Below are positions 24,196 to 56,055 of a DNA stretch of 64,000 nt, one piece after another; position 1 is the first letter of the stretch, and each line of letters opens with the position of its first letter. A program made the position numbers and the translations under genes. Under the pieces are notes generated by a model. That model ran no database searches. It was not told the DNA's origin and was given only the letters and a program-made list of their open reading frames with translations. The DNA comes from an uncultured candidatus Porisulfidus sp. (GTDB lineage Bacteria; Pseudomonadota; Gammaproteobacteria; Poriferisulfidales; Poriferisulfidaceae). The stretch spans positions 1,040,586 through 1,104,585 of the forward strand of contig OZ241993.1 in NCBI GenBank assembly GCA_965204575.1, written 5' to 3'.

Positions 24196-24468
24196 ATGTC
24201 ATTGGAACCGGAGTTGACAATGAATCAAATCGCCCGAACTGCGAAACAGGTCGGCGTGGCGGTGCGTCGCCATCGTCGTGCCTTGGGGTGGAGTCAAAGC
24301 GACCTCGGATCAAAAGCGGGCCTGCGCCAGGCGACGATATCGACGCTGGAGAGCGGAGAACCCGGGACGCGCTTGCGTACGCTGGTCGACGTCATGGCCG
24401 CGCTCGATCTTGAGGTGGTGATCCGGGACCGCTCCAAGGCTCCCAAGAGCATCGAGGAACTGTTCTGA
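24196..24468 (+). CDS. hipB: HipB-like XRE HTH antitoxin
   Basis: HTH IARTAKQVGVAVRRHRRALGWSQSDLGSKAGLRQATISTLESGE. Confidence 0.8.
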   Translation: MSLEPELTMNQIARTAKQVGVAVRRHRRALGWSQSDLGSKAGLRQATISTLESGEPGTRLRTLVDVMAALDLEVVIRDRSKAPKSIEELF

Positions 24469-25769: not shown

Positions 25770-26004
25770 ATGGCGGGTCGAGATCCGGGGATTTTTTCAG
25801 CAACTTGAACGCGAGATTGAACAGTAGTATCAGTCATTTCCATGTGTTTTCCCTGTAGCGGATATGCCCTGATCCTAACTCGATTCCCGTCGCGTCTGTC
25901 AAGTTTATCTATATAGTCCCCTTTTTAGGCATTGAATTCTTCTTCCCCGATCTCCGAGCTAGGGCGATTTTGGGGGATTTTTTCCGTTTGGGGTTGCCCA
26001 CCAA

Positions 26005-27830: not shown

Positions 27831-27871
27831 TCTTTATTTCCTCCTATAATAAGTAAAGGAGGATTTTATAG

Positions 27872-28126
27872 ATGCCTTTAAACATCAAAAATATTGCTAC
27901 TCATGCGTTAGCAAAGAAAATCGCAACCTTAACTGGGGAGTCTATGACTAAGGTTGTCACAGAGGCTCTCCAGGAGAAATTGGTGCAAGTGGAAAAGGCA
28001 AAAGGCCGCGTTGGACTGGCGGAGGAACTTGATCGCATTGCCTTGCACTGTGCCAGTCTACCAAGGCGCGATGACAGAAGCCCCGACGAGATCATTGGTT
28101 ACGACGACCACGGGCTACCCCAGTGA
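27872..28126 (+). CDS. vapB: VapB-family antitoxin
   Basis: 84 aa. MPLNIKNIATHALAKKIATLTGESMTKVVTEALQEKL. Confidence 0.75.
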   Translation: MPLNIKNIATHALAKKIATLTGESMTKVVTEALQEKLVQVEKAKGRVGLAEELDRIALHCASLPRRDDRSPDEIIGYDDHGLPQ

Positions 28127-28544
28127 TCGCCATTGATGCGTCTGCTCTCATCGCGATTCTGAGCGATGAACCGGAACGAAGTGGTTTCAACAAACTGATC
28201 GAGTCGGAAGAATTTGCGTACATTAGTGCTGCCAGCCTACTTGAGACCCGTATAGTTCTGTTTTCTCGCTTTGGTGACGATGGAGTCTTGGCTTTGGATT
28301 CGTTCCTTCTGAAAAGTGGCATCACTGTTGTCGAGGTCTCTCCCCGCATGGGCGCATTGCATTTGAGGCATACCAGCGTTTTGGCAAAGGGACAGGCCAT
28401 GGCGCATCTCTAAATTACGGAGACTGTTTTTCGTATGCTTTGGCAAAATATCTGGATGCTCCACTTCTCTTTAAGGGCGATGACTTTTCCAAAACAGACA
28501 TTTTCTCGACGTTGGTCGATACAGGAGAAACAGGTCAGCACTGA
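28123..28544 (+). pseudogene. vapC: VapC PIN-domain toxin interrupted by a frameshift
   Basis: The N-terminal PIN region (MIAIDASALIAIL...) reads to about 28385. The conserved C-terminal part (IAFEAYQRFGKGTGHGASLNYGDCFSYALAKYLDAPLLFKGDDFSKTDI) continues in the -1 frame, up to the stop at 28544. Confidence 0.7.
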
Positions 28545-28703
28545 GCAAGTGACTGAAGATCAAATGTCTGCATTGATCCTTGTCGCATGTGGATTGTAAA
28601 ACTGCAAAACTGATGTCCAAGACAAATCACTGGTGTTGTACCTCAGAGTTGAACCTGGGTCTTATAAAATATCCCGGTATCGGATTCATACAGGAACGGT
28701 AAC

Positions 28704-29579
28704 ATGGGAAATACCGAGGAATGCTATAAAGTTTGCCGTGAGAATATATCGGAGGCAGGACTATGGGTAGTGAAGTCAGAATATTGCGTGGTCCGTGCTT
28801 TGAGATCTCCACGGTGGTCAAAAACTTCTCAGCGTGACGAATCATCTAGGCCAGGTGTTTACATTCTTGCTGATGGAGCTAAAGAAAAGATTTACATTGG
28901 TCAAACCGATACTCTTCAGAAGAGAATACGTACTCATAAAAATAATAGATTCGATTGGTGGGAAGAAATGTTGTGGATTACCCCGGATGGAAGCTACCGG
29001 TTCGGGACAGACCGTAGACGCTACGTGGAATCCAAGCTGATAAGCCAAGCCCGGAAGCAAGAGATCGAATTGAAAAATGATCAGTTTCCAGAACCACCTC
29101 AGCTAGACCTAGATGAGCAAAAAGACCTAGATGAAAAGGTTCTAAATCCCATTCTCCAGATATTTATTCCTTTGATGATGGGCTTCAATTTTGTGTTGCC
29201 ATCGCCCCAGAGAGATACTGAACCAGGTTGTACTGAGTTTGAAATTATTCCGCAACAAGAGAGCATCAAGGCCTTTGCGAAGATAGTTGGCGGCAAATGG
29301 ATTGTGCAAAAAGGTTCTCAAGCCCGCAAAGATTGGATGGGAGGTGCGAGAACGAAAGAGCTCATTAAGGGGGCATACCACAATCTGTATCAGTCTTTAA
29401 AGAAACAGGATATTCTTCGCGAATACGAGGAATTCTGTGTTTTCACCGAAGACCATGAATTTGATAGTCCTAGTGCGGCCGCATCTGTCATCTACGGACG
29501 ACAGGCCGCGGGTCCTCGCAATTGGAATGTGAGAGGCGAAGACAAAACCTACCGGGAATGGGAAAAAGAGAACCTATAA
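28704..29579 (+). CDS. GIY-YIG nuclease-domain protein with a C-terminal DUF4357 domain
   Basis: GVYIL...KIYIGQT...R...E gives the GIY-YIG core. The C-terminal [22 protein letters not shown] resembles DUF4357. Confidence 0.6.
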
Positions 29580-29587
29580 ATCCTCCA

Positions 29588-31513
29588 GTGCCTGTCGTAA
29601 CCCTTCCTGACGGTTCCACCCGCGAGTTCAAGCAGCCGGTCACGGTGATGCAGATCGCCGAGGACATCGGTGCGGGCCTTGCCAAGGCGGCATTGGCCGG
29701 CCGGGTCAACGGGCGGTTGGTGGATGCCTGCGTCGAGGTGGACGAGGACGCCGAAGTTTCCATCATCACCAATCGCGACGAGGAAGGCATCGAGATCCTG
29801 CGCCATTCGCTGGCACACATGCTGGGGCAGGCGGTCAAGCAACTGTATCCAGACGCCCAGATGGCGGTCGGCCCGGTGATCAAGGACGGGTTCTACTACG
29901 ACATCGCCCACAAGGAATCCTTCACCGAGGAAGACCTTGAGAAGATCGAGGCCAAGGTGCAGGAGCTGATCGCACAGGACTATGACGTGCTGCGCGAAGT
30001 GGTGACCCGAGAGCGGGCCCGCGAAGAATTCGAGGGACGTGGCGAAACCTACAAGGTGCAGATCGTCGACGAGATCCCGGAAGGCGAGGAAATCGCGCTG
30101 TACCACCACCAGGAATACGTCGACATGTGTCGTGGCCCGCATGTCCCGAACACCCGCCACCTGCGGGCGTTCAAGTTGACCAAACTGGCGGGCGCCTACT
30201 GGCGGGGCGACTCCCGCAACGAGATGCTGCAGCGCATCTACGGCACCGTCTGGCCGGACGCCAAGCAGCTTCGGGCCTACCTCCACCGGCTGGAGGAAGC
30301 GCAGAAGCGCGACCACCGCAAGCTGGGGCGCGCGATGGACCTGTTCCATTTCCAGGAGGAAGCGCCGGGCATGGTGTTCTGGCACGCCAACGGCTGGATC
30401 CTGTATCGCCAGTTGGAAAGTTACATTCGCGAACGCCTGGACCAGACGGGCTACCAGGAGGTGCACACTCCGCAGATACTGGATCGCAGCCTTTGGGAGC
30501 GGTCCGGGCACTGGGACAAGTTCGGCGAGATGATCTTCACCACCGAGTCCGAGAACCGCGAGTACGCGGTCAAGCCGATGAACTGCCCGGGTCATGTCCA
30601 GTTGTTCAACCAGGGGCTCAAGAGTTACCGGGACCTGCCGTTGCGCATGGCCGAATTCGGCACCGTGCACCGCAACGAGCCGTCGGGCACCCTGCACGGG
30701 CTGATGCGGGCGCGCCGCTTCGTGCAGGACGACGCGCACATCTTCTGCACACCGGAACAGCTGCAGGACGAGATTGCCGAGTTGATCGAACTGACGCGTT
30801 CGACTTACCGGGACTTCGGATTCGAAGACATCATATTGGGCCTGTCGACCCGCCCGGAGCGGAGGATCGGCGAGGATGCCCTGTGGGACCGGGCCGAGAA
30901 GGCGTTGGACGAGGCGATGACCGCGACCGGCCTGGAATTCGCCGTGCATCCGGGCGAGGGCGCGTTCTACGGGCCGAAGATCGAGTTCACCTTGACCGAC
31001 TGCATCGGGCGCGAATGGCAGTGCGGCACGATCCAGCTGGATTTCTCCATGCCGGACCGCCTCGGTGCCCGGTACGTGGACGAGAACAGCGAGAAGGTGG
31101 TGCCGGTCATGATTCATCGTGCCATCTTCGGCTCGCTGGAACGGTTCATCGGCATCCTGATCGAACACTACGCCGGGGACCTGCCGCTGTGGCTGGCGCC
31201 CCGCCAGGCAGTGGTGCTGAACATCACCGATGCCCAGGCCGACTATGCCCGGGAGGCCATGGCACGGTTGCAGGCAGCCGGCGTGCGGGCGCAGAGCGAT
31301 CTTCGAAACGAGAAAATCTCCTTTAAAATACGCGAGCACACGCTCGCGCACGTCCCGTACCTGCTGGTAGTGGGCGATCGGGAACAGGAAAACCGGGCTG
31401 TCGCGGTGCGAGCGCGGGACGGCACGGACCTGGGGCCGGTGCCGCTGGATGAACTGGCGGAGCGGTTTGCTGTTACAATTCGCGCTCGCCGATCAAATCT
31501 GATGGAGGATTGA
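29588..31513 (+). CDS. thrS: Threonyl-tRNA synthetase
   Basis: 641 aa from a GTG. TGS domain ([26 protein letters not shown]), editing domain, class II core and anticodon-binding domain. Confidence 0.93.
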
Positions 31514-36355: not shown

Positions 36356-36433
<78 letters not shown>

Positions 36434-39911: not shown

Positions 39912-40012
39912 TCGCGCCGCCTGATGCGGCAGGTGTTGGACTACTACATTGCTCCGCAGACGATTCGGTCGCGGGGCATCATGCAGGCGCTGACGGGTTG
40001 ATTCCTGCGATC
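39912..40012. repeat. Direct repeat copy 2 (displaced recO 3' end)
   Basis: See the repeat at 39424-39526. Confidence 0.85.
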
Positions 40013-40052
40013 CTCGATATGGCACCTGAGCCTCAGCGGCTCAAAGGAGGGG

Positions 40053-40925
40053 TCAAGGCAAGCAGTCTTCGGGTTCAGGCGGTTGCCCGCCGTCCCTACG
40101 CAAGATGCGCAACGCCGCCTCGATATCAGCCTCGGATGCACATGTAGCGAAGAACGAAGCCATTTTCATCGCGGATACCTTTTCGGCGACTGCCATGACG
40201 ACGAACTGGTTGATGCTCGTGCCTTCCTCTTTGCTGATCTCCGTGACCGCCGACTTTAGGGAAGCCGGTAGTCTCAGGGGATAGGTGCTGGCTGGCTTCT
40301 TCATGGCACGGTCGGGCTGTCGGTCGCGAGGTTCGAGTGGTTGGGGAATGCGTTGATTGTCGCGGCAGTACTGCCACAGGTAGGCATCGACTTGTTGCCG
40401 AGTGAGTCCATGCTCCCGGCTCAGAAACGTGACCATCTCTTCCACAGTTGCGGAACACGCGGCGGCGCATTGCTTCATCCAGGTGTCAGGCTTCTCCGTG
40501 TCTTCAAGGCCGATGGCCGTTGCCAAGTGTCGGTTCGTGGCAGGTCCCATATAGGGAAGTTCCGTAAGCACAACCCTGCCGTGCTTGCGCATCCGTTGCT
40601 TGAAAGCCTCCCATCCTTCCGCATGAATCAACTTGCATCCCTTGAGGAAAGCATCCGCCTTCCGCTGATGGCGGATCGGCAGCGTCTGGGCATCTATTGA
40701 CTCCATGGCCACGATCCTGCCCAGGTCGAGGTTGTGGAATTTCTTGACGATGGTGTCGAAGTGCTTCTCGACGACTGAGTTCCGAAAACCCGAGACATAG
40801 ATGACCCAGAGGTACACCTCAAGAAATCCCTTCAGGTCGAGATCGTCGAAAACCCTCGGCTCCCACGGGCTGCCAACATGTGCCTGTGCGGTTTCCAGCA
40901 TCCGTGTTGCCTTGTTCTTATCCAT
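40053..40925 (-). CDS. Fusion protein: Tag-like (3-methyladenine DNA glycosylase I-like, HhH) N-terminal domain plus HicB-like RHH C-terminal domain
   Basis: FLEVYLWVIYVSGFRNSVVEKHFDTIVKKFHNLDLGRIVAM parallels E. coli Tag (FEMICLEGQQAGLSWITVLKKRENYRACFHQFDPVKVAAM). The C-terminus YPLRLPASLKSAVTEISKEEGTSINQFVVMAVAEKV matches the HicB-like antitoxin motif. Confidence 0.55.
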   Translation of the reverse strand: MDKNKATRMLETAQAHVGSPWEPRVFDDLDLKGFLEVYLWVIYVSGFRNSVVEKHFDTIVKKFHNLDLGRIVAMESIDAQTLPIRHQRKADAFLKGCKLIHAEGWEAFKQRMRKHGRVVLTELPYMGPATNRHLATAIGLEDTEKPDTWMKQCAAACSATVEEMVTFLSREHGLTRQQVDAYLWQYCRDNQRIPQPLEPRDRQPDRAMKKPASTYPLRLPASLKSAVTEISKEEGTSINQFVVMAVAEKVSAMKMASFFATCASEADIEAALRILRRDGGQPPEPEDCLP

Positions 40926-41025
40926 TTGTCATTGCCGTTTGCGGGCGGTCCCAACGTGAATTATAAAGAAAGGTTGATGATTTTATTGGCAATCTATAAG
41001 ATGGTTTAAAATAAAAGAGATTCGC

Positions 41026-41945
41026 ATGGCACACAGGCAACCCGGGAAATCGTATCGTCAGGGCATCGCTCTGGCCCACCTGTTCGACACGTTCCCGAAC
41101 GAGAAAGCGGCGCAGGAATGGTTCGAAAGCGTGGTATGGGCGAAGGGACGCTACTGCCCACGCTGTGGCTCTACGAGCACCCACGAGGCCAAGCATGCGA
41201 AATGCCCATACCGTTGCCGCGATTGCGGAAAGTACTTCAGCGTGAAGACGGGAACCGCCATGGCATCGTCCAAAGTTTCTCTTCGCAAGTGGGCCATCGC
41301 CATATACATTGACGCGACCAGCCCGAAAGGCGTGTCTTCGCTCCAGTTGCACCGAGATATCGGTGTGTCGCAGCCCACGGCCTGGTTCATGTTGCACCGC
41401 ATCCGCGAAGGATTCACGGACAAGCGCGCATCTATGGATGGCTTGGCCGAAATTGATGAGATGCACATCGGCGGCAAGCGTAAGAATATGCCCAAGAGTA
41501 AGCGAAAGGAACGGTCAGGGCGGAGTGCAACCGGCAGGACTGCGGTCGTTGGCGTGAAGGATCGCCAGACGAGGAAAGCTCGTGCAAAAGTGGTGGCGGA
41601 CCCGGGTTTGGACACTCTCCATGAGTTTCATTCGTGATCACGTCGCTGATGACGCAAAGGTCTGTACGGACGATGCCGTTCGACTCTGAACCCGTGAAAC
41701 ATGGCATGGGAGAGTACGTGCGGGGCATGGCCTACACGAACGGGGTCGAGTCGCTCGGGCTCATGCTTGAGCGGGGCGATATCGGTATTGATCATCAAAT
41801 GATTGCAAAGCATCTTCACTGGTACGTCAGCGGATTCGCCGGTCGTCACGGGGTGCGCGAGCGGAACACGCTGGAGCAACTGCGGGATGTTGCCGCTAGA
41901 ATGGCCGGCAAGAGGTTGCCGTATTGCGAACGGGTTCGTTTCTGA
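41026..41945 (+). pseudogene. IS1595-family transposase, inactivated by at least two frameshifts
   Basis: An N-terminal Zn-ribbon (CPRCGSTSTHEAKHAKCPYRCRDCGKYF) and DDE region read to EFHS* at 41637. The segment IRDHVADDAKVCTDDA lies in another frame. A third frame carries GMGEYVRGMAYTNGVESLG...HLHWYVSGFAGRH. Confidence 0.75.
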
Positions 41946-41956
41946 CAGGGGAGTGA

Positions 41957-42898
41957 TTGGAGAGCGTCATGGGAAACCCGATTTATGGAGGTGCAACGCC
42001 TGAGCAGGTGGCACTTGAGATGCTTCGGCCATCCAAGTTCATTGAACCGCTTTATGATCTCGTGTTTGGGGACGCCTTTGATTGGCTGGAATCGGCGGAG
42101 CATGAATCGATTCACGCGGTCGTGACCGACCCGCCTTACGGGTTGATCGAATACAAACCTGAACAACTCCAGAAGCGCCGAGATGGCAATGGCGGGGTAT
42201 GGCGTCTGCCGCCTTCGTTTGATGGAAGCAAACGTCAGCCAGTTCCGCGCTTTACGGTCTTGACTGACAGGGACAAAGATGAAATGAGGGCATTTTTTGC
42301 CCGTTTGGCTGAAAGTCTCTACCCGGTCCTCGTTCCAGGGGCCCATGTCTTCATTGCTACCAACCCCCTTCTAGCCCATTTGGTCTTCGAACCGTTCCTT
42401 GCTGCAGGATATGAGAAACGAGGAACGCTGATTCGTGAAGTGCATACGCTGCGCGGCGGTGACCGTCCCAAAAATGCCCATAAGGAATTCCCTGATGTCA
42501 CGGTCATGCCAAGATCATGCTTTGAGCCATGGGAAATTTTCCGGCGTCCGCTTCAAGGACGCGTTCAAGACAATCTGCGAAAGTGGGGAACCGGCGGTCT
42601 TCGGCGTCTCTCTGCGGAGCAACCGTTCAAGGATTTAGTCAAATCGTGTCCAGCGAAGAGGAAGGAGCGGGAAATTGCCCCCCATCCTTCATTGAAACCG
42701 CAAGCGTTTCTTCGGCCGTTGGTGAGGTCCAGCCTTCCTCTTGGTAAAGGTACCATACTCGATCCATTTGCAGGGTCAGGGTCCACCCTTGCAGCGGCGA
42801 TGGCTTGCGGCATAGAGAGTGTGGGCATTGAACGTGACCCGGAATACCATCAAATGGCATTGGACGCCATTCCGGCGTTGGCGCGTTTGGAAGTCTGA
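41957..42898 (+). CDS. Beta-class DNA methyltransferase (N6-adenine or N4-cytosine)
   Basis: Motif IV TDPPYGL comes before motif I DPFAGSGSTLAAA, in the ParB-MTase/beta-class order. Confidence 0.85.
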   Translation: MESVMGNPIYGGATPEQVALEMLRPSKFIEPLYDLVFGDAFDWLESAEHESIHAVVTDPPYGLIEYKPEQLQKRRDGNGGVWRLPPSFDGSKRQPVPRFTVLTDRDKDEMRAFFARLAESLYPVLVPGAHVFIATNPLLAHLVFEPFLAAGYEKRGTLIREVHTLRGGDRPKNAHKEFPDVTVMPRSCFEPWEIFRRPLQGRVQDNLRKWGTGGLRRLSAEQPFKDLVKSCPAKRKEREIAPHPSLKPQAFLRPLVRSSLPLGKGTILDPFAGSGSTLAAAMACGIESVGIERDPEYHQMALDAIPALARLEV

Positions 42899-42900
42899 CC

Positions 42901-43500
42901 ATGTTCGACAATGATGTTCAATTGCCTCCCGGATTGGAGATTTCCGCGATCCAACGCTCTATCGAGTTTGTCGAAAAACAATTAAGTGAACGTGACTTCG
43001 TGGACCTCTATCTTGAACAGGCCAATATATTCAGCGCGTTAGTGGGCATGTTCGCAACCAAGGCGCTGGATCAAGTCAGCAACTATGAAAAGCATCGGCA
43101 TAGCCATACGGCTCAACAACGTTTTCCTGATTTGTGCCGCCGGGGAGCATCCTTCCCACTTAAACCCGAGGATTCACTGGAGAGCAAGGCCAGCAAACGG
43201 CCTTGGGCGATACAATCCCACTACGATCACGCCGGATGGTACATCATCTGGAGATATCTGGTCGACCTGACCAAGACCATCAAGGATGATGCGGCTTTGG
43301 TGATTTGGCGCGTTGATGTCGTCTATTTGACCAAAACCGATTGGAAGTACGAGGGTTCGTCGGCAGATATGAGTGGCGGAGGAAGAACGCATACTTTTGG
43401 TGTGCGAAAACCTGCCACGCGATTGCGGGGCTGTGCCGTCTACAAGCGCCCCGACATCGTCATTCGTGATGGCAAGCCTGTGCCCGTCAACCTTCCTTGA
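42901..43500 (+). CDS. Hypothetical protein, candidate restriction endonuclease partner of the methyltransferase
   Basis: 199 aa, immediately downstream (3-nt gap) of the MTase in a low-GC insertion. No family recognised. Confidence 0.4.
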   Translation: MFDNDVQLPPGLEISAIQRSIEFVEKQLSERDFVDLYLEQANIFSALVGMFATKALDQVSNYEKHRHSHTAQQRFPDLCRRGASFPLKPEDSLESKASKRPWAIQSHYDHAGWYIIWRYLVDLTKTIKDDAALVIWRVDVVYLTKTDWKYEGSSADMSGGGRTHTFGVRKPATRLRGCAVYKRPDIVIRDGKPVPVNLP

Positions 43501-43698
43501 TTCCCTATTCTTTAAGAACAGTCGTAAGCAGGCGCCAACTCCAGGCAGAGGAAAAGCAGCGAAAGCGAAGCTCTTGCTTCCGTATATCCCCTAGGAACCA
43601 AGTTCAAATATGCCTTGCAACTCTTGCGGAGTGTATGCAGGTATTCCCGGAAAGCCTTTAGTGGTAGAGTGTCCATAGCAAAAACTACTTTGTGTACC

Positions 43699-44421
43699 GT
43701 GAAGAATGTACGACTAGGCGTGAATATTGACCACATAGCGACCCTGCGCCAGCAGCGCCACACGGACTACCCGGACCTGGGCGAGGCGATCCGCCGAGTG
43801 GAAGCGGCCGGGGCGGACGGCATCACCCTGCACCTGCGCGAGGACCGGCGGCACATCCAGCTGGAGGACGTGGAACAGGCGCGCCGGGAAGTGAGTGGAA
43901 CCCTGAACCTGGAGATGGCCGCAACCGAGGAGATGCTGGACATTGCGGAACGCATCCGTCCGGATTACTGCTGCCTGGTGCCTGAGCGGCGCGAGGAACT
44001 CACCACTGAAGGCGGTCTGGACGTCGTGGCGGGCGAAGATCGGATCCGGGAGGCGTGCACCCGGCTGAAAGCGGCGGGCATTCAGGTTTCGCTGTTTGTC
44101 GAGCCGACGCACGAAGCGATGGATGCCGCGGTCGAACTGGGTGCGTCGATCGTGGAGTTGCACACCGGTCCCTACGCCAACGCGACGGAGCCGGAAGCCC
44201 ACGAGGCGGAGCTGGAACGGCTGGTTTCCACCACGCAGTATGCGCGGGAACGGCTGACGGTCAACGCCGGACACGGCTTGCATCGCGACAACGTGGGCCC
44301 GGTGGCTTCGATCCCGGGAATGAACGAACTTAATATCGGTCACGCCATCGTCTGCCGGGCGGTGATGGTGGGATTGGAAGGAGCCGTGCGCGAAGTGCGC
44401 GAAGCCATGGAGGCGTCATGA
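43699..44421 (+). CDS. pdxJ: Pyridoxine 5'-phosphate synthase
   Basis: [15 protein letters not shown]...[16 protein letters not shown]...NLEMA...VNAGHGL...ELNIGHAI is the PdxJ signature. GTG start assumed at 43699. Confidence 0.85.
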
Positions 44422-46115: not shown

Positions 46116-47243
46116 TCAGTCCAGCAGTTTCCCGATGATGGCGCGGTAGACTTCGGCCAGCCGGTCGAGGTCCTCGACGGCGACGTGCTCGTCGATCTTG
46201 TGGATGCTGCGGTTGATCGGGCCGAATTCGACCACTTCGGCGCCGGTCGGCCGGATGAACCGTCCGTCCGAGGTGCCGCCTTCGGTGCTGAGCTCCGCTT
46301 CCGACCCCAGCACTTCCGATACGGCGTCCTGGCAGGTCCGGGTCAGGGTGCCGGGCGGCGTGCGGTAAGGCAGGCTCGCCTCCGCCCATTCGATCTGGTG
46401 CTCAAACCCGGCTTGCCCGAGAATCCCGGCGATCCGCTCTTTCAGTTCTTCGGCGGTGACTTCCGTCGAGTAGCGCAGGTTGAAGTCCGCGGTCAGTTCG
46501 CCCGGGACCACGTTGGCGGCGCCGCATCCGCTGTTGAGGTTGGAAACCTGGAACCGGGTCGGCTGGAAGTCCTCGTTGCCCTCGTCCCAGATGGTTTCGG
46601 TCAGTTCCACCAGGGCCGGCGCGAACCGGTGAATCGGGTTGTCGCACAGGGCCGGGTAGGCGATGTGGCCCTGGATGCCGCGAACCGTCAACCGCCCGGA
46701 CAACGAACCGCGGCGGCCGTTCTTGATGACGTCGCCAAGCCGTTCGCGGCAACTGGGTTCGGCGACGACGCACCAGGCAGGGATCTCCCGGCGCGCCTGA
46801 AGTCGCTCGACCGCGGCCCGGGTGCCGTGCACGGCCGGGCCTTCCTCGTCGCTGGTCAGCAGCAGGCCGATGGCGCCGGGGTGATCGGGCCGTTGCGCGG
46901 CGTACCGGGCGCAGGCGACCACCATTGCGGCGACGCCGCCCTTCATGTCGGCCGCGCCGCGGCCGTACAGGAGCCCGTCGCGGATCGCCGGGCTGAAGGG
47001 GTCGCTGCTCCACTGCTCGAGCGGGCCGGTCGGCACGACATCGGTGTGCCCGGCAAACATCAGCAACGGTTCGCTTTCGCCGTGGCGCAGCCACAGGTTC
47101 TGAACCTCGGCGAACGGCATGGGCTCGGCGACGAACCCATGGGGCGCGAGGTATTCGGCGATCAGGTCTTGGCAGCCCGCGTCTTCCGGCGTGACCGACG
47201 GCCGCTCGATCAGCGCGCAGGCGAGGTCCAGGACTTCCGGCAT
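46116..47243 (-). CDS. dapE: Succinyl-diaminopimelate desuccinylase
   Basis: M20 peptidase motifs (GHTDVVP, SDEEG). 375 aa. Confidence 0.9.
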   Translation of the reverse strand: MPEVLDLACALIERPSVTPEDAGCQDLIAEYLAPHGFVAEPMPFAEVQNLWLRHGESEPLLMFAGHTDVVPTGPLEQWSSDPFSPAIRDGLLYGRGAADMKGGVAAMVVACARYAAQRPDHPGAIGLLLTSDEEGPAVHGTRAAVERLQARREIPAWCVVAEPSCRERLGDVIKNGRRGSLSGRLTVRGIQGHIAYPALCDNPIHRFAPALVELTETIWDEGNEDFQPTRFQVSNLNSGCGAANVVPGELTADFNLRYSTEVTAEELKERIAGILGQAGFEHQIEWAEASLPYRTPPGTLTRTCQDAVSEVLGSEAELSTEGGTSDGRFIRPTGAEVVEFGPINRSIHKIDEHVAVEDLDRLAEVYRAIIGKLLD

Positions 47244-47594: not shown

Positions 47595-48422
47595 TCAACT
47601 GTCGGCCGCTTCGCGCAGGAGCGCGTTGATGCCGACCTTGCTGCGGGTCTTCTGGTCGACCTGCTTGACGATCACCGCGCAGGCCAGGCTGTACTTTCCG
47701 TCGGAAGCGGGCAGCGAGCCGGGGACGACCACGGCGCCGGCCGGGACCCGGCCGTAGGAGACCTCGTCGCGTGCGCGATCGTAAATCCGGGTGCTCTGGC
47801 CGATGAACACGCCCATGGAGATGACCGCGCCGCGTTCGACGATTACGCCTTCCACGATTTCCGAGCGTGCGCCGATGAAGCAGCCGTCCTCGATGATGGT
47901 GGGGGCGGCCTGCAGCGGTTCCAGCACGCCGCCGATGCCGACGCCGCCGGAGAGATGGACGTTCTTGCCGACCTGGGCGCAGGAACCGACCGTCGCCCAG
48001 GTGTCCACCATGGTTCCGGAGTCGACGTAGGCCCCGATGTTCACGAAACTCGGCATCAGCACCACGCCGGGCGCGATGAAGCTGCCGAAGCGCGCGGTCG
48101 CGGGCGGCACGATGCGGACTCCGCCGCTGTCCAGTTCCTTTTCGCTGCCCAGGGCGAAGCGGCCGGCCACCTTGTCGCGGTAGCGGGTGTGCCCGCCATC
48201 GATGACCTCGTTGTCGGTGATGCGGAACGAAAGCAGCACGGCCTTCTTGAGCCACTCGTTGACGACCCAGCCGCCGCCGGCGGGCTCGGCGACCCTCAGG
48301 CGGCCGTCGTTGAGGTCCTGCAGGGCTTCCCGCACGGCGTCGCGAACGGGCTCGGGGGCGGAGTCCGGGGTCAGTTGCGCGCGTTCCTCGAACGCCTGCT
48401 CGATGGTGGACTGGAGGCTCAT
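47595..48422 (-). CDS. dapD: 2,3,4,5-tetrahydropyridine-2,6-dicarboxylate N-succinyltransferase
   Basis: Hexapeptide-repeat left-handed beta-helix region. 275 aa. Confidence 0.9.
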
Positions 48423-48612
48423 GAGAGAGGCCCGGCTGAAAGCATGGCGCGTATGTTAACAGGAAGGTCGCGAGAGGCGGGGGCGGGCGGGCCGGCGACC
48501 GATGATTTTTCACCGTTGCGGCCGGCGCGTCCGCCGCGCTTGGAGTGGCGCACACCCGCGCAGGGACAGCGGCACGGCATGTTGTATACTTAGGCGAAAC
48601 CACAATGGTAGC

Positions 48613-48631
48613 CCCCCCCCCCCCCCCCCCC
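48613..48631. repeat. Poly-C homopolymer tract (19 C) in the dapD/secB-like divergent intergenic region
   Basis: gccccccccccccccccccccctag, read directly from the sequence. Confidence 0.9.
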
Positions 48632-48862
48632 TAGAAAGAGTCTTCCCCCGCGCCTCCGCGGCGGGCATCGGGAACGTCCGCGGCACCGCCCCGCGCAGGG
48701 CTGGCCGCGCGAGACGGCGGTCGGGCACGTGGCGCGGCCATCGCCAGGCAGGGCGCGTTCTTTCATGCCGGCCTCAAGCGCCTGCCCAGACCGGGGTTTG
48801 ATAAAGAAAAAACTATTTGTTAAAATCCTGCCCATCATCGGGAAGTGGTATTTGCATCTTTA

Positions 48863-49285
48863 ATGGAACCTAACATCGTTATGCATGGCCGATACATACG
48901 GGATCTATCCTTCGAGAATTTCGGTGCGCCGGCCTTGCCGGGGGACGCCGCCCCCGTCTTCGACATCGACGTCGGGGTGGAGAGCAGGCGGGCCCGGGAC
49001 ATGCACGAGGTGATGCTGTTCGTCCAGGTCACCGCCCGGCGCGAGGAGCAGATCGCGTTCCTGATCGAGTTGAACTACGCCGGCCTGTTCCAGGTCCAGG
49101 ACCTGGACGAGCGGGAGACGCGGCGTTTCCTCCACACCGAGGCGCCGCGCATGCTGTTTCCGTTCGTCGACCGGATCTGCGCGGACGCGACCCGGGACGG
49201 CGGCCTGCCGCCGCTGGCCCTGACGACCCCGGACTTCGCCCTGCTGTACCGGGAACGCGAGGAGAAACCCGCCGCCATCGACTGA
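48863..49285 (+). CDS. secB: SecB-like export chaperone
   Basis: GRYIRDLSFEN..., HEVMLFVQVTARREEQIAFLIELNYAGLF and MLFPFVDRICADATRDGGLPPLALTTPDFALLY align with E. coli SecB. Confidence 0.7.
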   Translation: MEPNIVMHGRYIRDLSFENFGAPALPGDAAPVFDIDVGVESRRARDMHEVMLFVQVTARREEQIAFLIELNYAGLFQVQDLDERETRRFLHTEAPRMLFPFVDRICADATRDGGLPPLALTTPDFALLYREREEKPAAID

Positions 49286-49314
49286 CTACTGAGCCTGTGT
49301 GGAAGCTCAGCCAC

Positions 49315-50727
49315 ATGCAAGAATCCCCCCCCCCCCCCTCAAACCATAACCGGCCTGAACTAGGGCCCGGCGCGGCCCGCGCGCCGGTCCTGCGCCGTCG
49401 CCGTCGCGACGGGTGGCTGCCGCCGGAGAAACGCCGTGCGCGTTCCAGGACGCGGGTGCGCCGGCAGGTGGCGGTCAACGTGCTGGGGGTGTGCTCCATG
49501 CTTTCGCACTCGGTGGCGCCGTACCTGGCGGCGGTCGCCGCGAAAAGCACCACCGCGGTCGGCGCGGTCGGCACGTTCGCCGCCCTGGCGCCCGACGAGG
49601 CGGCGGCGCAAAACCCGGGCCCGGCGGGAGCCAAGGGCGACAAGGGCGACAAGGGCCAGGTGGGCATTCCTGGACGACCGGGCGACAAGGGCGAGGAGAT
49701 GGGCGCACCCCCCGGTGAGAAGGGCGCAACAGGCGTAAAGGGCTCGCCCGGCGGAGAAGGTCAGAAGGGCGATCAGGGACGGCCGGGCAATCGAGGCAGC
49801 CGAGGCATACCGGGCGAAGAGGGGGCGAAGGGCGTGCTGGGATTCAAAGGCCTTCCGGGAGGCGCTGGCGATCAGGGCTCGAAGGGCCCGAGGGGCGATC
49901 CAGGTCCGCAGGGCTCGGCGGGTGTCAAGGGCGATACGGGCCAGAAGGGCGACCCGAAGGCGATCGGTGCCAAGGGCGATACAGGCGAGGCGGGCGCACC
50001 GGGTGCACCGGGCACGCCGGGCGCGCAGGGTTCGCAGGGCGCACAGGGCGCACAGGGCGCGCCGGGCGCACCGGGCGCATCGGGCACGCCGGGCGCCAAA
50101 GGGGAGGCAGGCGCGGGCGGCTTCGATTTTTCCGAGCAGGGGAAGGCGCGGGTCCGGGAGAAGGCCCGGGCCCTGCGGGAATCGGAGAACCCGGCCGACC
50201 AGCGGATCGGTCGGCTGCTGGAAGGCATCCTGGACGAGCTGGCGCCGGCCGCGGGGGGACAGCTGCAGTCGCTGCAGTCCGCCGGCGGGCGGGCGCTGCA
50301 GACCGAGGAGCCGGCGAGTGACAGCCTGACCCTGCTGCGGTATGCCTCCCGCTCCGACACGCCCCGGGCGGAGCAGGCCGGGGCGCTGATGGGCAGCATC
50401 TTCCTGAACCAGCGGGACATCGCCGAGAATCGCCAGAACATCGAGAAGAACCGGCAGGACATCGCCGGGCTGCGGGACGAGGACTACAGGCTGCGCAACC
50501 GCTCGCGCGAGGGGACCGCCCTGGCCATCGCGCTCGGCGGCATCCACTTCCCGCTGGACAAGGACCGGTCCGTCTCGCTGCGCTTCGGGCGCTTCGAGGG
50601 CGAGGAGGCGCTGGCGCTGGGCGCGTCCTTCCGCCTGCGGGAGAACTGGCAGATCGATTTTGGCATGGGCCGGGGGCTGAGCTACCGGCAGAACGGCTAT
50701 TCCGCCGGGCTGAGCTACAGCCGGTAG
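49315..50727 (+). CDS. Collagen-like trimeric autotransporter adhesin, paralog 1: Gly-X-Y repeat stalk, coiled coil, YadA-like C-terminal anchor
   Basis: About 56 Gly-X-Y triplets ([21 protein letters not shown]...), with Lys and Pro frequent in the Y position. The C-terminus [69 protein letters not shown] matches the YadA anchor pattern. The start is uncertain: ATG 49315 reads through the poly-C tract, and ATG 49498 is a conservative internal alternative. Confidence 0.65.
49325..49338. repeat. Poly-C homopolymer tract (14 C) at the 5' end of the first collagen-like adhesin gene
   Basis: aatcccccccccccccctc. It is in frame, encoding SPPPPS, if translation starts at ATG 49315. Confidence 0.9.
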
Positions 50728-50764
50728 GCGGCCCCTGAGACTGAACCACGAGGAGGTGAGGAAG

Positions 50765-52189
50765 ATGAGCAGCGAGGAGAAGAGGCGGCCGGATTCGGAA
50801 GACGGGCTTCCGCCCGAGTCGAGGGAGGCCGCGGGGCGCGCGCCGGTCCTGCGCCGTCGCCGTCGCGACGGGTGGCTGCCGCCGGAGAAGCGCCGTGCGC
50901 GCTCCGGGACGCGGGTGCGCCGGCAGGTGGCGGTCAACGTGCTGGGGGTGTGCTCCATGCTTTCGCACTCGGTGGCGCCGTACCTGACGGCGGTCGCCGC
51001 GAAAAGCACGACCGCGGTCGGCGCGGTCGGCACGTTCGCCGCCCTGGCGCCCGACAAGGCGGCGGCGCAGGACCCGGGCCCGCCGGGCCAGAAGGGCGAA
51101 AAGGGCGACGCGGGCGTACAGGGCGCGCCGGGTTCGCAGGGCGCGCCGGGTGGCGAAAAGGGCGGCCGGGGCGACATGGGCCAGAAGGGCGAGCCGGGTG
51201 ATCCGGGCGCCACGGGCGAGAAGGGTTCGCAGGGCTCACCCGGCAGGCGTGGCATCACCGGCAACAAGGGCGAGGAGGGTGATCCGGGCGCGACAGGTAG
51301 TCAGGGTCAGAAGGGCGTTTTCGGCGAGCCGGGTGATCCGGGTCCGCAGGGCGCGGCAGGTGATCCGGGTCAGAAGGGCGCGATGGGTCAGAAGGGCGAG
51401 GCCGGCGGCCCGCCGGGCCAGAAGGGCCAAAAGGGGACAGCCGGCACAGCCGGCCCGTCGGGCGCCGCCGGTGCGCCGGGCGCAGCCGGTGCGCCGGGCG
51501 CCGCCGGTGCGCCGGGCGCTGCCGGTGCATCGGGCGCCGCCGGTGCGCCGGGCGAGAAAGGCGATGCGGGCGCGGGCGGCCTTGACTTCTCCGAGGAGGG
51601 GAAGGCGCGGATCCGGACCACGGCCCAGATCCTGCAGAAATCGGAGAATCCCGCCGACCGGCAGATCGGGGAGCTGCTCGAGGAGGTCCTGGACGAACTG
51701 GCGCCGGCCGCCGAGGGACAGCTGCAGTCGCTGCAGTCGGCCGGCGGGCAGGCGCTGCAGGCCGGGGAGGAGCCGACGGGCGACAGCCTGGCCCTGCTGC
51801 GCTACGCCGCCCGCTCCGACGTCACCGGGGCGGAGCAGGCCGGGGCGCTGGTGGGCAGCGTGCTCCTGAACCAGCGGGACATCGCCGAGAATCGCCAGAA
51901 CATCGAGAAGAACCGGCAGGACATCGCCGGGCTGCGGCACCAGTACCGCGACCTGCGCGACCGCTCGCGCGAGGGGACCGCCCTGGCCATCGCGCTCGGC
52001 GGCCTGCGCGTCCCGGTGGCCCGGGACTGGGCCGTGTCGCTGCGCTTCGGGCGCTTCGAGGGCGAGGAGGCGGTCGCGCTGGGCGCGGCCTTCCGCCTGA
52101 AGGAGGGCTGGCAGGTCGATTTCGCGCTGGGCCAGGGCCTGAGTTACTCGCAGAACGGCTATGCCGGTGGCGTGAGCTACAGCTGGTAG
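50765..52189 (+). CDS. Collagen-like trimeric autotransporter adhesin, paralog 2
   Basis: A strong SD (AGGAGG) sits 8 nt upstream of ATG 50765. There is an Arg-rich N-terminal extension, a conserved hydrophobic leader, about 50 Gly-X-Y triplets, and a YadA-like anchor ending ...GVSYSW. Confidence 0.8.
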
Positions 52190-52199: not shown

Positions 52200-52832
52200 A
52201 TGGCGGTGCGGCGGCGGGCGGCGGAGGCGGCGATGCGGCACTTGCTGACGTACGAGGGGGCACGGGCGGACGGCTGCTGGCGGGAGGTCGCCCCGGACAT
52301 CCTGACCTTCCCGTTCTGGACCCCGGACTTCTGCGAGGAACTGGTGGCGGTGTCCGAGCTGCTCGACGAGTTCCGCCCGTACGCCCCCGACGTGGAGGGC
52401 AACGCCGCGCCGGGGCAGGAACTGCGGATCAACCGGATCAGCCCGCGCTTCGCGGAACAGTTCGAGACGCATTTCCAGGAGCGCGCGGCGCCGATCCTCC
52501 GCGTGCACTGGTGGCCGCTGAACCTGGGCAAGACGCGCATGCCCTTCGTGCTGCGCTACTCCGCCGACACGCAGGCCTCCCTCGACCCGCACCACGACGC
52601 CGCCATGGTGAGCCTGGCGATGCCGCTCAACGCCGGCTACGAGGGCGGGCACCTGACCTTCCCGCGCCAGCACTGGGACAGCCGCGAGGTCGAGGTCGGG
52701 CACGTGATCGCCTTTCCGAGCCGGGTCACCCACGTGCACTGGGTCACGCCGGTGACCTCCGGGACCCGCTACGCGATGACCTGCTGGCTGTCCGACCCGA
52801 ACGCCCAGCCCGACGATGCCATTCTCGCGTGA
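52200..52832 (+). CDS. 2OG-Fe(II) oxygenase homologous to the catalytic domain of procollagen lysyl hydroxylase (PLOD/LH)
   Basis: LDPHHDAAMVSLAMPLNAGYEGGHLTF...HVIAFPSRVTHVHWVTPVTSGTRYAMTCWLSDP parallels the human PLOD C-terminus ([29 protein letters not shown]...GTRYIMVSFVDP). HxD...H iron triad. Confidence 0.8.
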   Translation: MAVRRRAAEAAMRHLLTYEGARADGCWREVAPDILTFPFWTPDFCEELVAVSELLDEFRPYAPDVEGNAAPGQELRINRISPRFAEQFETHFQERAAPILRVHWWPLNLGKTRMPFVLRYSADTQASLDPHHDAAMVSLAMPLNAGYEGGHLTFPRQHWDSREVEVGHVIAFPSRVTHVHWVTPVTSGTRYAMTCWLSDPNAQPDDAILA

Positions 52833-54267
52833 GGAGCCGGCGGACGTCCCCGCCGTCCTTGTCGTCCACCTCGCGCGCCACCGGGAACGCCGCCGCCGCC
52901 TGTCCGCCCTGCTGAAGCGGCACGGGTTCGCGCACGTGAACTGGCTCGACGCGGTGGACGGCCGGGAGCTGGACCCCGCGCCGCCGTGGCGGGGCGCCGG
53001 CCTGCCGCCGGCCAACGCCTGGCCGAACTGGGCGGATCCGTACGCCCGCCGCGCCCTGACCCTGGGCGAGGTTGCCTGTACCCTGTCGCACGTGGCCGCC
53101 TGGCGGCGCATCGCGGACGAGGGCTACCCCGCCATCGTGCTGGAGGACGATGCGCTCCCGGTGGAGCCGCTGATCCGGGACCTGCCGGACCTGCTGGCGG
53201 ACCTCGATCACTTCGACTTCGACCTGTGCTACCTCGCCCAGCGCAACGCGCCGGGGCCGAAGGCGCTGATGGGCCGGCACGTGCACCTGGTCGACTACCA
53301 CCCGGTGTGGACGCTGGCCTACCTGCTGGCGCCGTCCGGCGCGGAGAAGCTGCTCGCCAGCCCCTGGCAGAGCCGGCTGGTCCCGGCCGACGAACTCCTG
53401 CCCGCCGCGTTCGGCCGGAACCGGGACCCGGAGATCAACCGGGCCTACGTCGGCGACGGCGGCATGGTGCTGTCCAGCAACCAGCGCTTCTTCACCCCGG
53501 CCGAGGGTTCGGAGAGCAGCGAGACCGAGAAGAGCCGGCCGGTGCGGGAGCCGGAATGCGGCCTGACGGGCCTGACCGTGGCGACCGAACGCCGCCCGGA
53601 ACTGCAGCGCCTGCAGGAGTCCGGCCTGCGCTACGGCCTGGAGATCGAGGCCCTGGGGCTGGGCCAGCCCTGGCGCGGCGGCGAGATGTCCGAGGGCACC
53701 GGCGGGGGACAGAAGATCAACCTGCTGCGCCCCGCCCTGCAGCGGCTGCCGCCGGAGCGGCCGGTGCTGTTCGTGGACGGCTACGACACCCTGATCTCCG
53801 GGCATGTCTCGGACATCCTGGGCGCCTGGCGGCAGACCTGCGACGGCCCGCTGTTCGCCGCCGAGGTCTACTGCTGGCCGGATCGCGACCGGGCCGACGA
53901 CTACCCTTCCGCGGCGACCCCCTACCGCTTCCTGAACTCCGGCGCCTTCATCGGCAAGGCCGGGGACCTGCTGCGCATCCTGGACGGGAAGATCGACGAC
54001 CGCGCGGACGACCAGCGCTACTACACCGAGCGCTTCCTGTCCGGCCGGCACGGCATGACGCTGGACACCGAGTGCCGGGTCTTCCAGTGCCTCAACGGCG
54101 CCCTGGACGACGTGCGGGCGGACGAGGGGCGGGGCATGCTGTTCAACCGGCGCACCGAGAACTGGCCGGCGGTGATCCACGCGAACGGCCCAAGCAAGGA
54201 GTGGCTGGAGAAGGACGGCCGGCCCGTGGGCGGCCGCTGGCGCCGCTACTACGGGGAGATGATTTGA
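52816..54267 (+). CDS. Bifunctional glycosyltransferase: N-terminal GT25 (collagen galactosyltransferase/LgtB-like) domain fused to a PLOD/LH3-type glycosyltransferase domain
   Basis: GT25 motifs VLVVHLARHRERR, LTLGEVACTLSHVAAWRRI and IVLEDD. The C-terminal half (LTVATE..LGLGQPWRGG..GGGQK..LFVDGYDTLISG..CWPD..YRFLNSGAFIG..YYTERFL..VFQCLNGALDDV..IHANGPSK) is colinear with the N-terminal GT domain of human lysyl hydroxylases. Confidence 0.8.
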   Translation: MPFSREEPADVPAVLVVHLARHRERRRRLSALLKRHGFAHVNWLDAVDGRELDPAPPWRGAGLPPANAWPNWADPYARRALTLGEVACTLSHVAAWRRIADEGYPAIVLEDDALPVEPLIRDLPDLLADLDHFDFDLCYLAQRNAPGPKALMGRHVHLVDYHPVWTLAYLLAPSGAEKLLASPWQSRLVPADELLPAAFGRNRDPEINRAYVGDGGMVLSSNQRFFTPAEGSESSETEKSRPVREPECGLTGLTVATERRPELQRLQESGLRYGLEIEALGLGQPWRGGEMSEGTGGGQKINLLRPALQRLPPERPVLFVDGYDTLISGHVSDILGAWRQTCDGPLFAAEVYCWPDRDRADDYPSAATPYRFLNSGAFIGKAGDLLRILDGKIDDRADDQRYYTERFLSGRHGMTLDTECRVFQCLNGALDDVRADEGRGMLFNRRTENWPAVIHANGPSKEWLEKDGRPVGGRWRRYYGEMI

Positions 54268-54286
54268 ATCTCTGGTTGAGGTAACG

Positions 54287-54709
54287 ATGAGCAAAAGAAT
54301 TTCAGCACTGGTCATCCTTGTCGCGCTGTCCCTGCCGCTGACCGCGCAGGCGCACGACAACCTCTTCAATCCGGGGCACCAGCACGGGCTTGAGGTCGAT
54401 GCCATTTCCGAGCGCAACAGAGGGTCTTTCTGCATCGTGTTCAAGGAATCTTCGGTCGAGTGTCCAGAGAAGTACAACAGCCTCAGAGGGTGCGCGTACA
54501 AGTGCCTGTACCGGGTATGGGCGGACTGGTCGGACGACCGGGGGAGTGGCCGCGAGGTCGATCATAACTGGAGCCGCTGCCATATTGCAGGCAGTCACAA
54601 CCCGGCGCTTGCGGCGGCGGAAGTCCGCATCACCAAGCCGCACTGGGCGACCGGGGCCTGGGGCGCGTATGTCCGCGCCGGGGATGACGGAGAAAAGATC
54701 GTGAGGTGA
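54287..54709 (+). CDS. Small secreted Cys-containing protein (signal peptide)
   Basis: MSKRISALVILVALSLPLTAQA signal peptide; 7 Cys residues; low-GC segment. Confidence 0.5.
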   Translation: MSKRISALVILVALSLPLTAQAHDNLFNPGHQHGLEVDAISERNRGSFCIVFKESSVECPEKYNSLRGCAYKCLYRVWADWSDDRGSGREVDHNWSRCHIAGSHNPALAAAEVRITKPHWATGAWGAYVRAGDDGEKIVR

Positions 54710-54737
54710 GACTGATGAACCCAAACAGGAGAAAATC

Positions 54738-55031
54738 ATGAAGAAAACCATACCCGCGCTGATCCTGATGCTGGCCTTGTCCCCGGCATACGGATTGGCA
54801 CCTAAACCCCGACCCCTTGTGGACATCTGCAAGGATCACTTCGAAAGAAGTTCCGCCTACCAGAGTTGCACCGATATTCAATATGCGGATGTCGGCGGCG
54901 GCTACTGCAAGGTCATGGCGTGGTGCCGCTCGGTAAATGAAACGCTATCTTCCACGTCCAAGAGGACAAAGCCGTCGGAGGCCGACGAACTGTACAACTG
55001 TCAGGGCCAGTTGACGATCAAGGTTTGCTGA
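54738..55031 (+). CDS. Small secreted Cys-rich protein (signal peptide)
   Basis: MKKTIPALILMLALSPAYGLA signal peptide, an SD (AGGAGA) upstream, and 8 Cys residues. Confidence 0.5.
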   Translation: MKKTIPALILMLALSPAYGLAPKPRPLVDICKDHFERSSAYQSCTDIQYADVGGGYCKVMAWCRSVNETLSSTSKRTKPSEADELYNCQGQLTIKVC

Positions 55032-55083
55032 TGGCCGGAGCAACGAGGCTAATCGTGAGCGGCGTGTTCGCCTGACCTGGGCC

Positions 55084-56055
55084 ATGCCTTCCGGGGAACC
55101 CGTGCTGGTCACCGGCGGGGCTGGCTACGTGGGCAGCCATGTGGCGCTGGCGCTTCGCGAGGCGGGCTACCCTGCCGTGGTCCTCGACGACCTCTCCACG
55201 GGGCGGCGCGAGGCGGTGCCCGACGGGGTTGGATTCATCGAGGGCGATGTCGGCGACCGGGTCGCCGTCGGCCGCATCCTCGGGGAATCCCGCATCGCCG
55301 CCGTCGTGCATTGCGCCGCCAGCGTCAGCGTCCCCGAATCCGTGCGCGACCCGCTACGCTACTACCGCAACAACAACAGTGCGGGCACGGGCTTGGTCCG
55401 CGCCTGCGTCGAGGCCGGGGTGGGACGCTTCGTCTTCTCGTCGACCGCCTCGGTGTACGGCGTGCCGCGCACGGTGCCGATCCCCGAGGATGCCCTGACC
55501 CTCCCCATCAATCCCTACGGATGCTCCAAGCTGGCCTCCGAATGGATGCTGCGCGATGTCGCGGCGGCCCACGACTTCCGCTGCATCACGCTGCGCTGCT
55601 TCAATGCGGCCGGGGCCGACCCCCGGGGCCGGGCCGGGTCGGATGGCCCGGATTCCGGACACCTGATCGAGGTCGCCTGTGCGGCCCTCGCCGGCCGCCG
55701 CGACCGCGTCACCGTGTACGGCACGGACTACGGGACGGCGGACGGCACCTGCGTGCGGGATTACGTCCACGTGTCGGATCTCGCCGCAGCCCATGTCGCC
55801 GCGCTGCGCGAGCTCGAGGACGGGGGGGAAGGCGGCGTGTTCAACTGCGGCTACGGACGCGGCTTCTCGGTCCGCGAGGTGTTGGAGACGGTGCAGGCCG
55901 AGGCGCGCGTGCGCCTCGACATCCGCGACGGGCCGCGTCGCGCCGGCGACCCCCCGGTGCTGATCGCCGAGGCGTCGAGAATTCGACGGACGCTGCGCTG
56001 GTCGCCGCGCTTCGACGACCTCGCCGTGATCGTCCGCACCGCACTCGCCCGCTGA
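55084..56055 (+). CDS. galE: UDP-glucose 4-epimerase
   Basis: Rossmann motif VLVTGGAGYVGSH, catalytic YGCSK, and an SDR extended-family C-terminus. Confidence 0.85.
   Translation: MPSGEPVLVTGGAGYVGSHVALALREAGYPAVVLDDLSTGRREAVPDGVGFIEGDVGDRVAVGRILGESRIAAVVHCAASVSVPESVRDPLRYYRNNNSAGTGLVRACVEAGVGRFVFSSTASVYGVPRTVPIPEDALTLPINPYGCSKLASEWMLRDVAAAHDFRCITLRCFNAAGADPRGRAGSDGPDSGHLIEVACAALAGRRDRVTVYGTDYGTADGTCVRDYVHVSDLAAAHVAALRELEDGGEGGVFNCGYGRGFSVREVLETVQAEARVRLDIRDGPRRAGDPPVLIAEASRIRRTLRWSPRFDDLAVIVRTALAR

Follow-up and report, generated by a model that had tools for sequence, protein, structure and literature searches.

A C14 Homopolymer in the First Codons of a Collagen-Like Adhesin Gene as a Candidate Slipped-Strand Phase Switch in an Uncultured, Probably Sponge-Associated Bacterium

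Results and Discussion

TAA1 Carries a Candidate Translational Switch in Its First Codons

In a 64,000-nt stretch of DNA (hereafter the window, to which all coordinates refer unless another locus is named), an uninterrupted run of 14 C (49325-49338, plus strand) was found in codons 4-8 (S-P-P-P-P) of TAA1, the first of two tandem genes predicted to encode collagen-like adhesins with a YadA-type anchor. We propose that this tract acts as a slipped-strand translational phase switch in the 5′ coding region of TAA1, a reading of the sequence to which we give a probability of about 0.62. With 14 C, or with 11 or 17, the start codon ATG 49315 would be in frame and the full precursor, including a basic leader, would be made. 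Slipped-strand mispairing at replication would add or remove a C, and reading from ATG 49315 would then stop 3-8 codons past the tract, so that the most that could still be made is a product without the leader, initiated at GTG 49456 or ATG 49498. TAA1 would be co-transcribed with the gene of a dedicated SecB-like chaperone. The second adhesin gene, TAA2, should be unaffected by slippage because it has no tract and a strong Shine-Dalgarno (SD) sequence. If TAA1 switches and TAA2 stays constant, the population would therefore be mixed for the display of adhesin 1. We infer that tract length changes at a high rate and reversibly in vivo, that the OFF phase would abolish functional adhesin, and that the switch would be adaptive, e.g., in host interaction.

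Organization of the Adhesin Locus

Gene assignments in the window were made from Pfam profile matches. An M20-family peptidase gene (46116-47243) and a tetrahydrodipicolinate N-succinyltransferase gene (47595-48422), which we take to be dapE-like and dapD-like, respectively, lie on the minus strand. They are followed on the plus strand by a divergent SecB-like chaperone gene (48863-49285; Pfam SecB, 119.6 bits), TAA1 (49315-50727), TAA2 (50765-52189), a 2OG-Fe(II) oxygenase gene (52200-52832), a fused GT25 and PLOD-GT glycosyltransferase gene (52816-54267), an ORF of 140 aa without a Pfam match (54287-54709), and a sugar epimerase (4-epimerase) gene (55084-56055).

The 470-aa TAA1 product comprises a leader, a hydrophobic signal-like segment in its N-terminus, a collagen Gly-X-Y region, a stalk, and a YadA-type anchor. 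Its Collagen (78.9 bits) and YadA_anchor (PF03895; 33.1 bits against a cut-off of 22.7, residues 422-475) matches both exceeded the Pfam cut-offs. TAA1 thus appears to combine the YadA-like anchor, coiled stalk, and export signal by which trimeric autotransporters (type Vc) are recognized. TAA2 encodes a second collagen-repeat adhesin with a YadA anchor; the two proteins are 69% identical overall and near-identical across the leader and signal region.

The SecB-like protein scored under every NCBIfam SecB equivalog cut-off (best 130.4 bits vs. 143), and its gene was always found directly 5′ of the adhesin gene in this adhesin family, with synteny in loci L001, L082-L086, and L091. Its profile scores class it as a divergent SecB-fold paralog, not a canonical housekeeping chaperone. 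The adhesin family is rare: a full scan of 1.84 billion proteins returned 18 representatives at E ≤ 1e-10. Exact-sequence look-ups retrieved no record for the SecB-like protein (146-aa and 140-aa versions), the glycosyltransferase, or protein P0002. In a word-indexed database, the 99-aa N-terminus gave zero matches as a homolog query and the C-terminal domain gave one. One relative came from a scan of a genome collection and two close ones from a metagenome scan.

The genes for the 2OG-Fe(II) oxygenase, the GT25 and PLOD-GT glycosyltransferase, the 140-aa ORF, and the 4-epimerase (52200-56055) are syntenic in L001, L082, L083/L084, L085, and L091, and this set looks like an animal-type kit for collagen hydroxylation and Gal/Glc-glycosylation. 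As predicted from these assignments, the operon would be unusual in associating a dedicated SecB-like chaperone, collagen-like adhesins, and animal-type collagen-modifying enzymes in a symbiont.

Effect of Tract Length on the Reading Frame of TAA1

The start codon ATG 49315 (49315-49317, plus strand) lies 29 nt past the SecB-like stop codon and is shared with L082, L089, and L086. It is preceded, with a 9-nt spacer, by a weak SD-like sequence, GGAAG (49301-49305), and this weakness is a point against the switch. In the public annotation of this genome, gene call P0113 gives the same 470-aa protein with the same start. When tract length was varied in simulation, ATG 49315 was in frame at C11, C14, and C17. 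At C13 and C16 its frame ended at TAG 49361-49363, 22 nt 3′ of the tract, and at C12 and C15 it ended at TAA 49347-49349, 8 nt 3′ of the tract. Stops were likewise found 9-23 nt 3′ of the tracts of L082 and L086. The first canonical in-frame starts 3′ of the tract are GTG 49456, then ATG 49498. The former is part of AGGA-N5-GTG (49447-49458), a possible internal start whose use in the OFF phase would yield the leader-less product. Another candidate for the ON start, GTG 49299, which is in frame at C13 and C16, was not retained, because it has no SD and is missing from L086.

Most of what the initial annotation had said of this site was borne out. The in-frame run reported at the 5′ end of TAA1 is exactly 14 C, read through from ATG 49315, and the predicted truncation by one C gained or lost agrees with the simulated stops (TAA 49347-49349 at C15; TAG 49361-49363 at C13). 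Paralog 2 is indeed tract-free, with a strong SD (GAGGAGG 50750-50756, N8, ATG 50765) and an N-terminus that differs over about 25 residues. Two statements had to be amended: ATG 49498 is not the sole fallback start, since GTG 49456 is also available with AGGA at a 5-nt spacing, and GC content, given as 67%, is 62.3% in the window and about 69% around the tract. Homopolymers of this length had been called rare, and the counts agree: the window contains nine C6 runs, no C7-C13, one C14, and one C20 (48612-48631, about 700 nt upstream), these last two being the only homopolymers longer than 7. A first-order Markov model predicted 6e-4 C runs of at least 14 in the window.

The properties by which contingency loci are recognized were compared with the site. 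Its 14 C exceed the G/C run of about 8 considered long enough for hypermutability, it is sited in codons 4-8 of an ORF, where a length change would alter expression, and the product, with its Collagen and YadA_anchor domains, is predicted to be surface-exposed or to take part in host interaction. Its length is also polymorphic among strains, with the reservation that assembly counts may err by one.

Two further effects may modify the outcome, as judged from general knowledge. The Pro4 encoded by the tract may add a dependence on EF-P, and slippage of RNA polymerase on the 14-nt run may make the OFF phase leaky and blur the on/off outcome.

Tract Length Varies across Strains

Tract lengths were compared in public assemblies, in which homopolymer counts can be off by one. 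A module of the form GGAAG-N9-ATG-CA(A/G)-GAA-T(G)-Cn was shared by the window, L082, and L089 (alignment A4) despite their diverged flanks. Against the C14 of the window, in which ATG is in frame, the homologous tract is C13 in L082 (ENA sample ERZ23495174, record labelled SAMN17524325; 96% identical DNA) and C16 in L089/L090 (ENA record labelled SAMN17524321, Logan run SRR13587050; 90% identical DNA). The more distant L086, from a TARA metagenome, whose SecB-like protein is 83% identical, reads ATG-CCGAT-C14. The site is therefore not invariant across isolates (C14, C13, C16, and C14), as the initial annotation had required of a switch.

L082 is in frame with C13. The tract is followed there by GAAAG and in the window by TCAA, and since the missing C is offset by one extra base in the adjoining 4-5 nt (13 + 5 = 14 + 4), the frame is kept. 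In L086 the ATG is out of frame and would need C13 or C16, so that this assembly is in an apparent OFF phase. This could be a sequencing error, because homopolymer lengths in assemblies may be wrong by one base. Moreover, L086 carries a downstream in-frame ATG (696) just 5′ of the conserved leader motif, so being out of frame need not mean OFF.

Contigs also break at the tracts. Those of L089 and L090 end 23 and 3 nt 3′ of the C16 tract, and the L082 scaffold begins exactly at the base 3′ of the C20 site. These breaks are suggestive of length heterogeneity or of reads that are hard to resolve.

A Second Tract and Its Recurrence in the Family

The C20 run, absent from the initial annotation, forms TAG-C20-TAG (48612-48631, plus strand) in non-coding DNA flanked by dapD and the SecB-like gene. 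It starts 22 nt past the TATACT of a weaker promoter-like site, GGGACA-16-TATACT (48563-48590). A strong promoter-like sequence, TTGATA-17-TAAAAT (48798-48826), lies 170 nt past it, 5′ of the SecB-like gene. C20 is a probable second variable site, acting at the level of the operon.

A positional homolog, TAG-C14-TAG, was found 5′ of the SecB-like gene in L001, a MAG labelled Gammaproteobacteria APA_bin_21. L002, from the Aplysina aerophoba sponge metagenome MKWU (PMC5649159), is the same strain as L001, with one mismatch in 6.8 kb, and reads C16, 13 nt, and C9 at the tract. In L091, G10 is located upstream of the SecB-like gene, and no tract was found in L083 and L084. L085 has a C11 located 46 nt 5′ of the adhesin start, which cannot be fused to the adhesin ORF at any length. 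Given C20, C14, and G10 5′ of the SecB-like gene, and the C11 of L085, the family therefore also uses or tolerates non-coding tract positions, which counts against the coding-region switch. The C11 of L085 lies inside an upstream ORF of 24 codons (1764-1840 in L085), and only lengths of C8, C11, or C14 make the stop of this ORF overlap the start of the adhesin gene (UGAUG). Here the tract could act by coupling translation of the two ORFs in a length-dependent way instead of by shifting the adhesin frame.

In the family loci (150 kb in total), runs of at least 8 G or C were restricted to operon 5′ positions, with the exception of one C8. No such run was present in 78 unrelated, ordinary SecB loci (600 kb) from the metagenome scan that served as the background set. 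The exceptional C8 falls in the epimerase gene of L001 and L002 (L001 4867-4874, corresponding to L002 5009-5016), where it makes up codons 2-4 (MPPPK); in the window and L082 the epimerase begins with MPSGE and has no run.

Other kinds of change were seen at these loci. L083 (6461-8129) and L084 (6461-7963) are contigs about 98.5% identical, distinguished in the collagen repeats by an indel of about 166 nt; L084 encodes the adhesin in one ORF of 500 aa, L083 in two separate ORFs. Change in collagen repeat number may be a second source of variation. L089 (5265-7816) lacks both dapD and C20, and 5′ of its SecB-like gene lie an IS605 OrfB/TnpB-type gene, a further SecB-like copy that is degraded, and a 2OG oxygenase gene in inverted orientation. 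Its gene content marks the L089 locus as rearrangement-prone.

Some of these observations bear on the possibility that the C14 tract is a neutral mutational hot spot, in a TAA1 gene that is redundant, drifts toward inactivation, or has its frameshifts masked by transcriptional slippage. TAA1 could be dispensable next to an intact, tract-free TAA2; its SD is weak, and the locus is prone to rearrangement, as illustrated by the IS605-type gene and degraded SecB-like copy of L089 and the split adhesin gene of L083. We nevertheless regard this explanation as unlikely. A neutral homopolymer of 13-16 nt would be expected to decay over such a distance, whereas four lineages, down to 83% identity of the SecB-like protein, have kept both the tract and its ATG module. 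The compensating change that restores the frame in L082, the full-length TAA1 ORF with its intact anchor, and the recurrence of tracts only at 5′ control points of the operon also argue against it.

The C14 Tract Is Predicted to Lie within Coding Sequence

A translational switch requires that the tract be read by ribosomes, and the conserved leader of the adhesins is informative in this respect. A basic motif with the family consensus LRxRxR..(E)WW(S)P is encoded at 49390-49437 in TAA1 and at 50843-50890 in TAA2, both on the plus strand. It precedes the hydrophobic signal segment in every family member examined. It was present in the seven adhesins aligned (alignment A3) and in the distant representatives P0115, P0116, P0119, P0121, P0122, and P0125, and it is kept even in L091, a locus of only 52% GC. 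The only canonical in-frame starts of TAA1 located 5′ of the motif are GTG 49297 and ATG 49315, both 5′ of the tract, and none was found between the tract and the motif. The TAA1 leader can thus be translated only from a start located 5′ of the tract.

The position of ATG 49315 matches the SD and ATG starts of tract-less relatives, which range from overlapping the 3′ end of the SecB-like gene (L083/L084 and L091) to 26-43 nt past its stop (26 nt in L001). The 5′ end of TAA1 is also colinear, without an indel, with the N-terminal coding region of TAA2, with 27 codons to the shared GTC CTG CGC CGT. Comparison of the window with L086 revealed 25 synonymous-only codon differences among 82 aligned codons. 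Synonymous changes include the codons immediately 3′ of the tract, which read QPELRKAAGRAP in L086 and are homologous to the window residues that follow C14. From the conservation of the leader, the placement of ATG 49315, and the colinearity with TAA2, we conclude that the leader is coding and that C14 is within coding sequence, as far as sequence comparison can tell.

A competitor to this placement is that the tract varies but acts before translation, in a promoter or 5′ UTR, through transcription, mRNA stability, or coupling, the true start of TAA1 being GTG 49456 or ATG 49498. The SD of GTG 49456 is the better one (AGGA, 5 nt), and the exactly equal total length of the window and L082 across the tract would also suit a constraint on spacing. 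Elsewhere in the family, the C11 of L085 lies 5′ of the adhesin start, about 37 nt past a promoter-like −10 and in the upstream ORF with the UGAUG overlap described above, and C20 follows a promoter-like TATACT. For C14 itself, however, a simple scan, which covers neither activator-dependent nor alternative-sigma promoters, found no pair of sigma-70-like hexamers flanking the tract, and the promoter-spacer type of homopolymer switch was accordingly set aside for this site. Initiation at GTG 49456 would also leave untranslated a leader motif that every family member keeps, the SD-like element, ATG, and tract are conserved as one unit, and the codons directly 3′ of the tract include synonymous changes relative to L086. 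We consider a pre-translational action of C14 to be quite unlikely, and translation from ATG 49315 through the tract to be the better account.

An artefact of sequencing or assembly, for example a poly-G/C error in the reads or a collapsed junction, is highly improbable. Long G/C homopolymers are error-prone, contigs break at them, and the L001/L002 difference, confined to the tract and one other base, could be technical. Contigs of four independent samples, and of at least three assembly sources, nevertheless carry the tract at this position between flanks that are colinear to its left and right. The flanking sequence is also homologous to the 5′ coding end of TAA2 with no indel at C14, and a single BLAST segment (window 48632-49432 = L082 1-787, 96%) spans it in an independent assembly, which disposes of the junction that the initial annotation had named as a possible refutation.

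At the RNA level, no Rfam family was detected at the tract (the only match had E = 0.92), and its predicted fold was not significant (z-score −0.77). A CTGAGC..GCTCAG hairpin 3′ of the SecB-like stop was dropped; by eye, it looked weakened in L082 and absent in L089.

Nature of the Leader and Possible Exchange between Paralogs

The leader itself had no Pfam match. It was considered as an ESPR (PF13018), an assignment that we rejected: the isolated N-termini gave no match to that profile up to E 10, and LRxRxR..WWSP is a different basic motif. The RRQVAV segment was dropped as a twin-arginine signal, most relatives having RK at this position. The leader may be a docking sequence for the dedicated SecB-like chaperone.

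The paralogs are nearly identical in DNA over the leader and signal region (49371-49619 vs. 50830-51078), and the rest shows about 69% protein identity. This pattern suggests gene conversion between the paralogs, ending just 3′ of the tract-bearing segment. The N-gap in the L082 scaffold (788-887) probably has the same cause.

Comparison with Known Phase-Variable Adhesins

The closest analogue of TAA1 is Hag/MID of Moraxella catarrhalis, a trimeric autotransporter adhesin whose phase variation is translational and depends on a poly-G tract close to the 5′ end of the ORF (PMC1931440). TAA1 is likewise a predicted trimeric (Oca/YadA-type) autotransporter with a G/C homopolymer in the first codons, where a change of one base shifts the frame. 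The two proteins are unrelated outside the anchor, TAA1 having a collagen Gly-X-Y passenger and the conserved basic leader, and the TAA1 tract, on the C strand, is read as Pro4. TAA1 further differs in its tandem tract-free paralog and dedicated SecB-like gene, and in its host bacterium, which is uncultured and probably sponge-associated, the switch being proposed here from sequence.

Promoter C-stretches are found at the fim2 and fim3 genes of Bordetella, similar to Opc. The Opc protein of Neisseria meningitidis is governed by a poly-C tract in the promoter (PMC3960869). In these systems a poly-C of variable length, about 10-15, controls a surface adhesin, as is proposed for C14. Their tracts lie between promoter elements and act on transcription, whereas C14 lies within the ORF, at codons 4-8, and the scan showed no promoter hexamers flanking it. 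By analogy, an Opc-type switch may be a better model for C20 and for the C11 of L085.

Two other trimeric autotransporter adhesins show repeat-mediated phase variation: UspA1 of Moraxella, with a poly-G upstream of the ORF, and NadA of Neisseria, with TAAA repeats upstream of the promoter. Unlike TAA1, they vary at the transcriptional level, and the position and type of the repeat differ. The bacterial collagen-like adhesins Scl1/Scl2 and Lcl of Legionella share the Gly-X-Y triple-helix region with TAA1, but the NCBIfam matches cover the collagen part only and TAA1 scores far under the cut-offs of these families. They are anchored by LPXTG or other means, in contrast to the YadA beta-barrel of TAA1, and they vary by repeat number, not by a 5′ homopolymer.

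Significance and Minor Observations

By analogy with these systems, the proposed C14 switch fits a known class, the slippage switches of the pathogen type, and its setting rather than its mechanism would be unusual. Simple-repeat phase variation is a hallmark of host-adapted pathogens. A literature search turned up no account of it from sponge symbionts; the single paper that combined the two terms concerned Pseudomonas isolates from a freshwater sponge. If our reading is true, an uncultured symbiont would stochastically diversify its surface at a collagen-like adhesin encoded in an operon with animal-type collagen-modifying enzymes. Tract length in metagenomic reads would then be a scorable site for the study of host-symbiont recognition. 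Automated gene calls at this locus would also hinge on a hypermutable base count, of which annotators should be aware.

A wider interpretation, which we put forward only tentatively, is that C14 belongs to a multi-level contingency system which a small clade of sponge-associated proteobacteria has evolved several times. G/C tracts would have been placed independently 5′ of the SecB-like gene (C20, C14, and G10), in codons 4-8 of one member of the tandem adhesin pair (C13-C16), and within an upstream ORF coupled to the start of the adhesin gene (C11). The population would then vary in whether, and which, collagen-like fibre is displayed, this fibre being probably hydroxylated and glycosylated like animal collagen, and the system would amount to phase-variable mimicry of the host matrix in a mutualist, as opposed to a pathogen.

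The window as a whole contains no rRNA, and its sole Rfam match at the gathering score is a tRNA (36357-36430). Blocks of 50-57% GC at 16000-30000 and 40000-44000 stand amid sequence of 62-69% GC and may be acquired islands.
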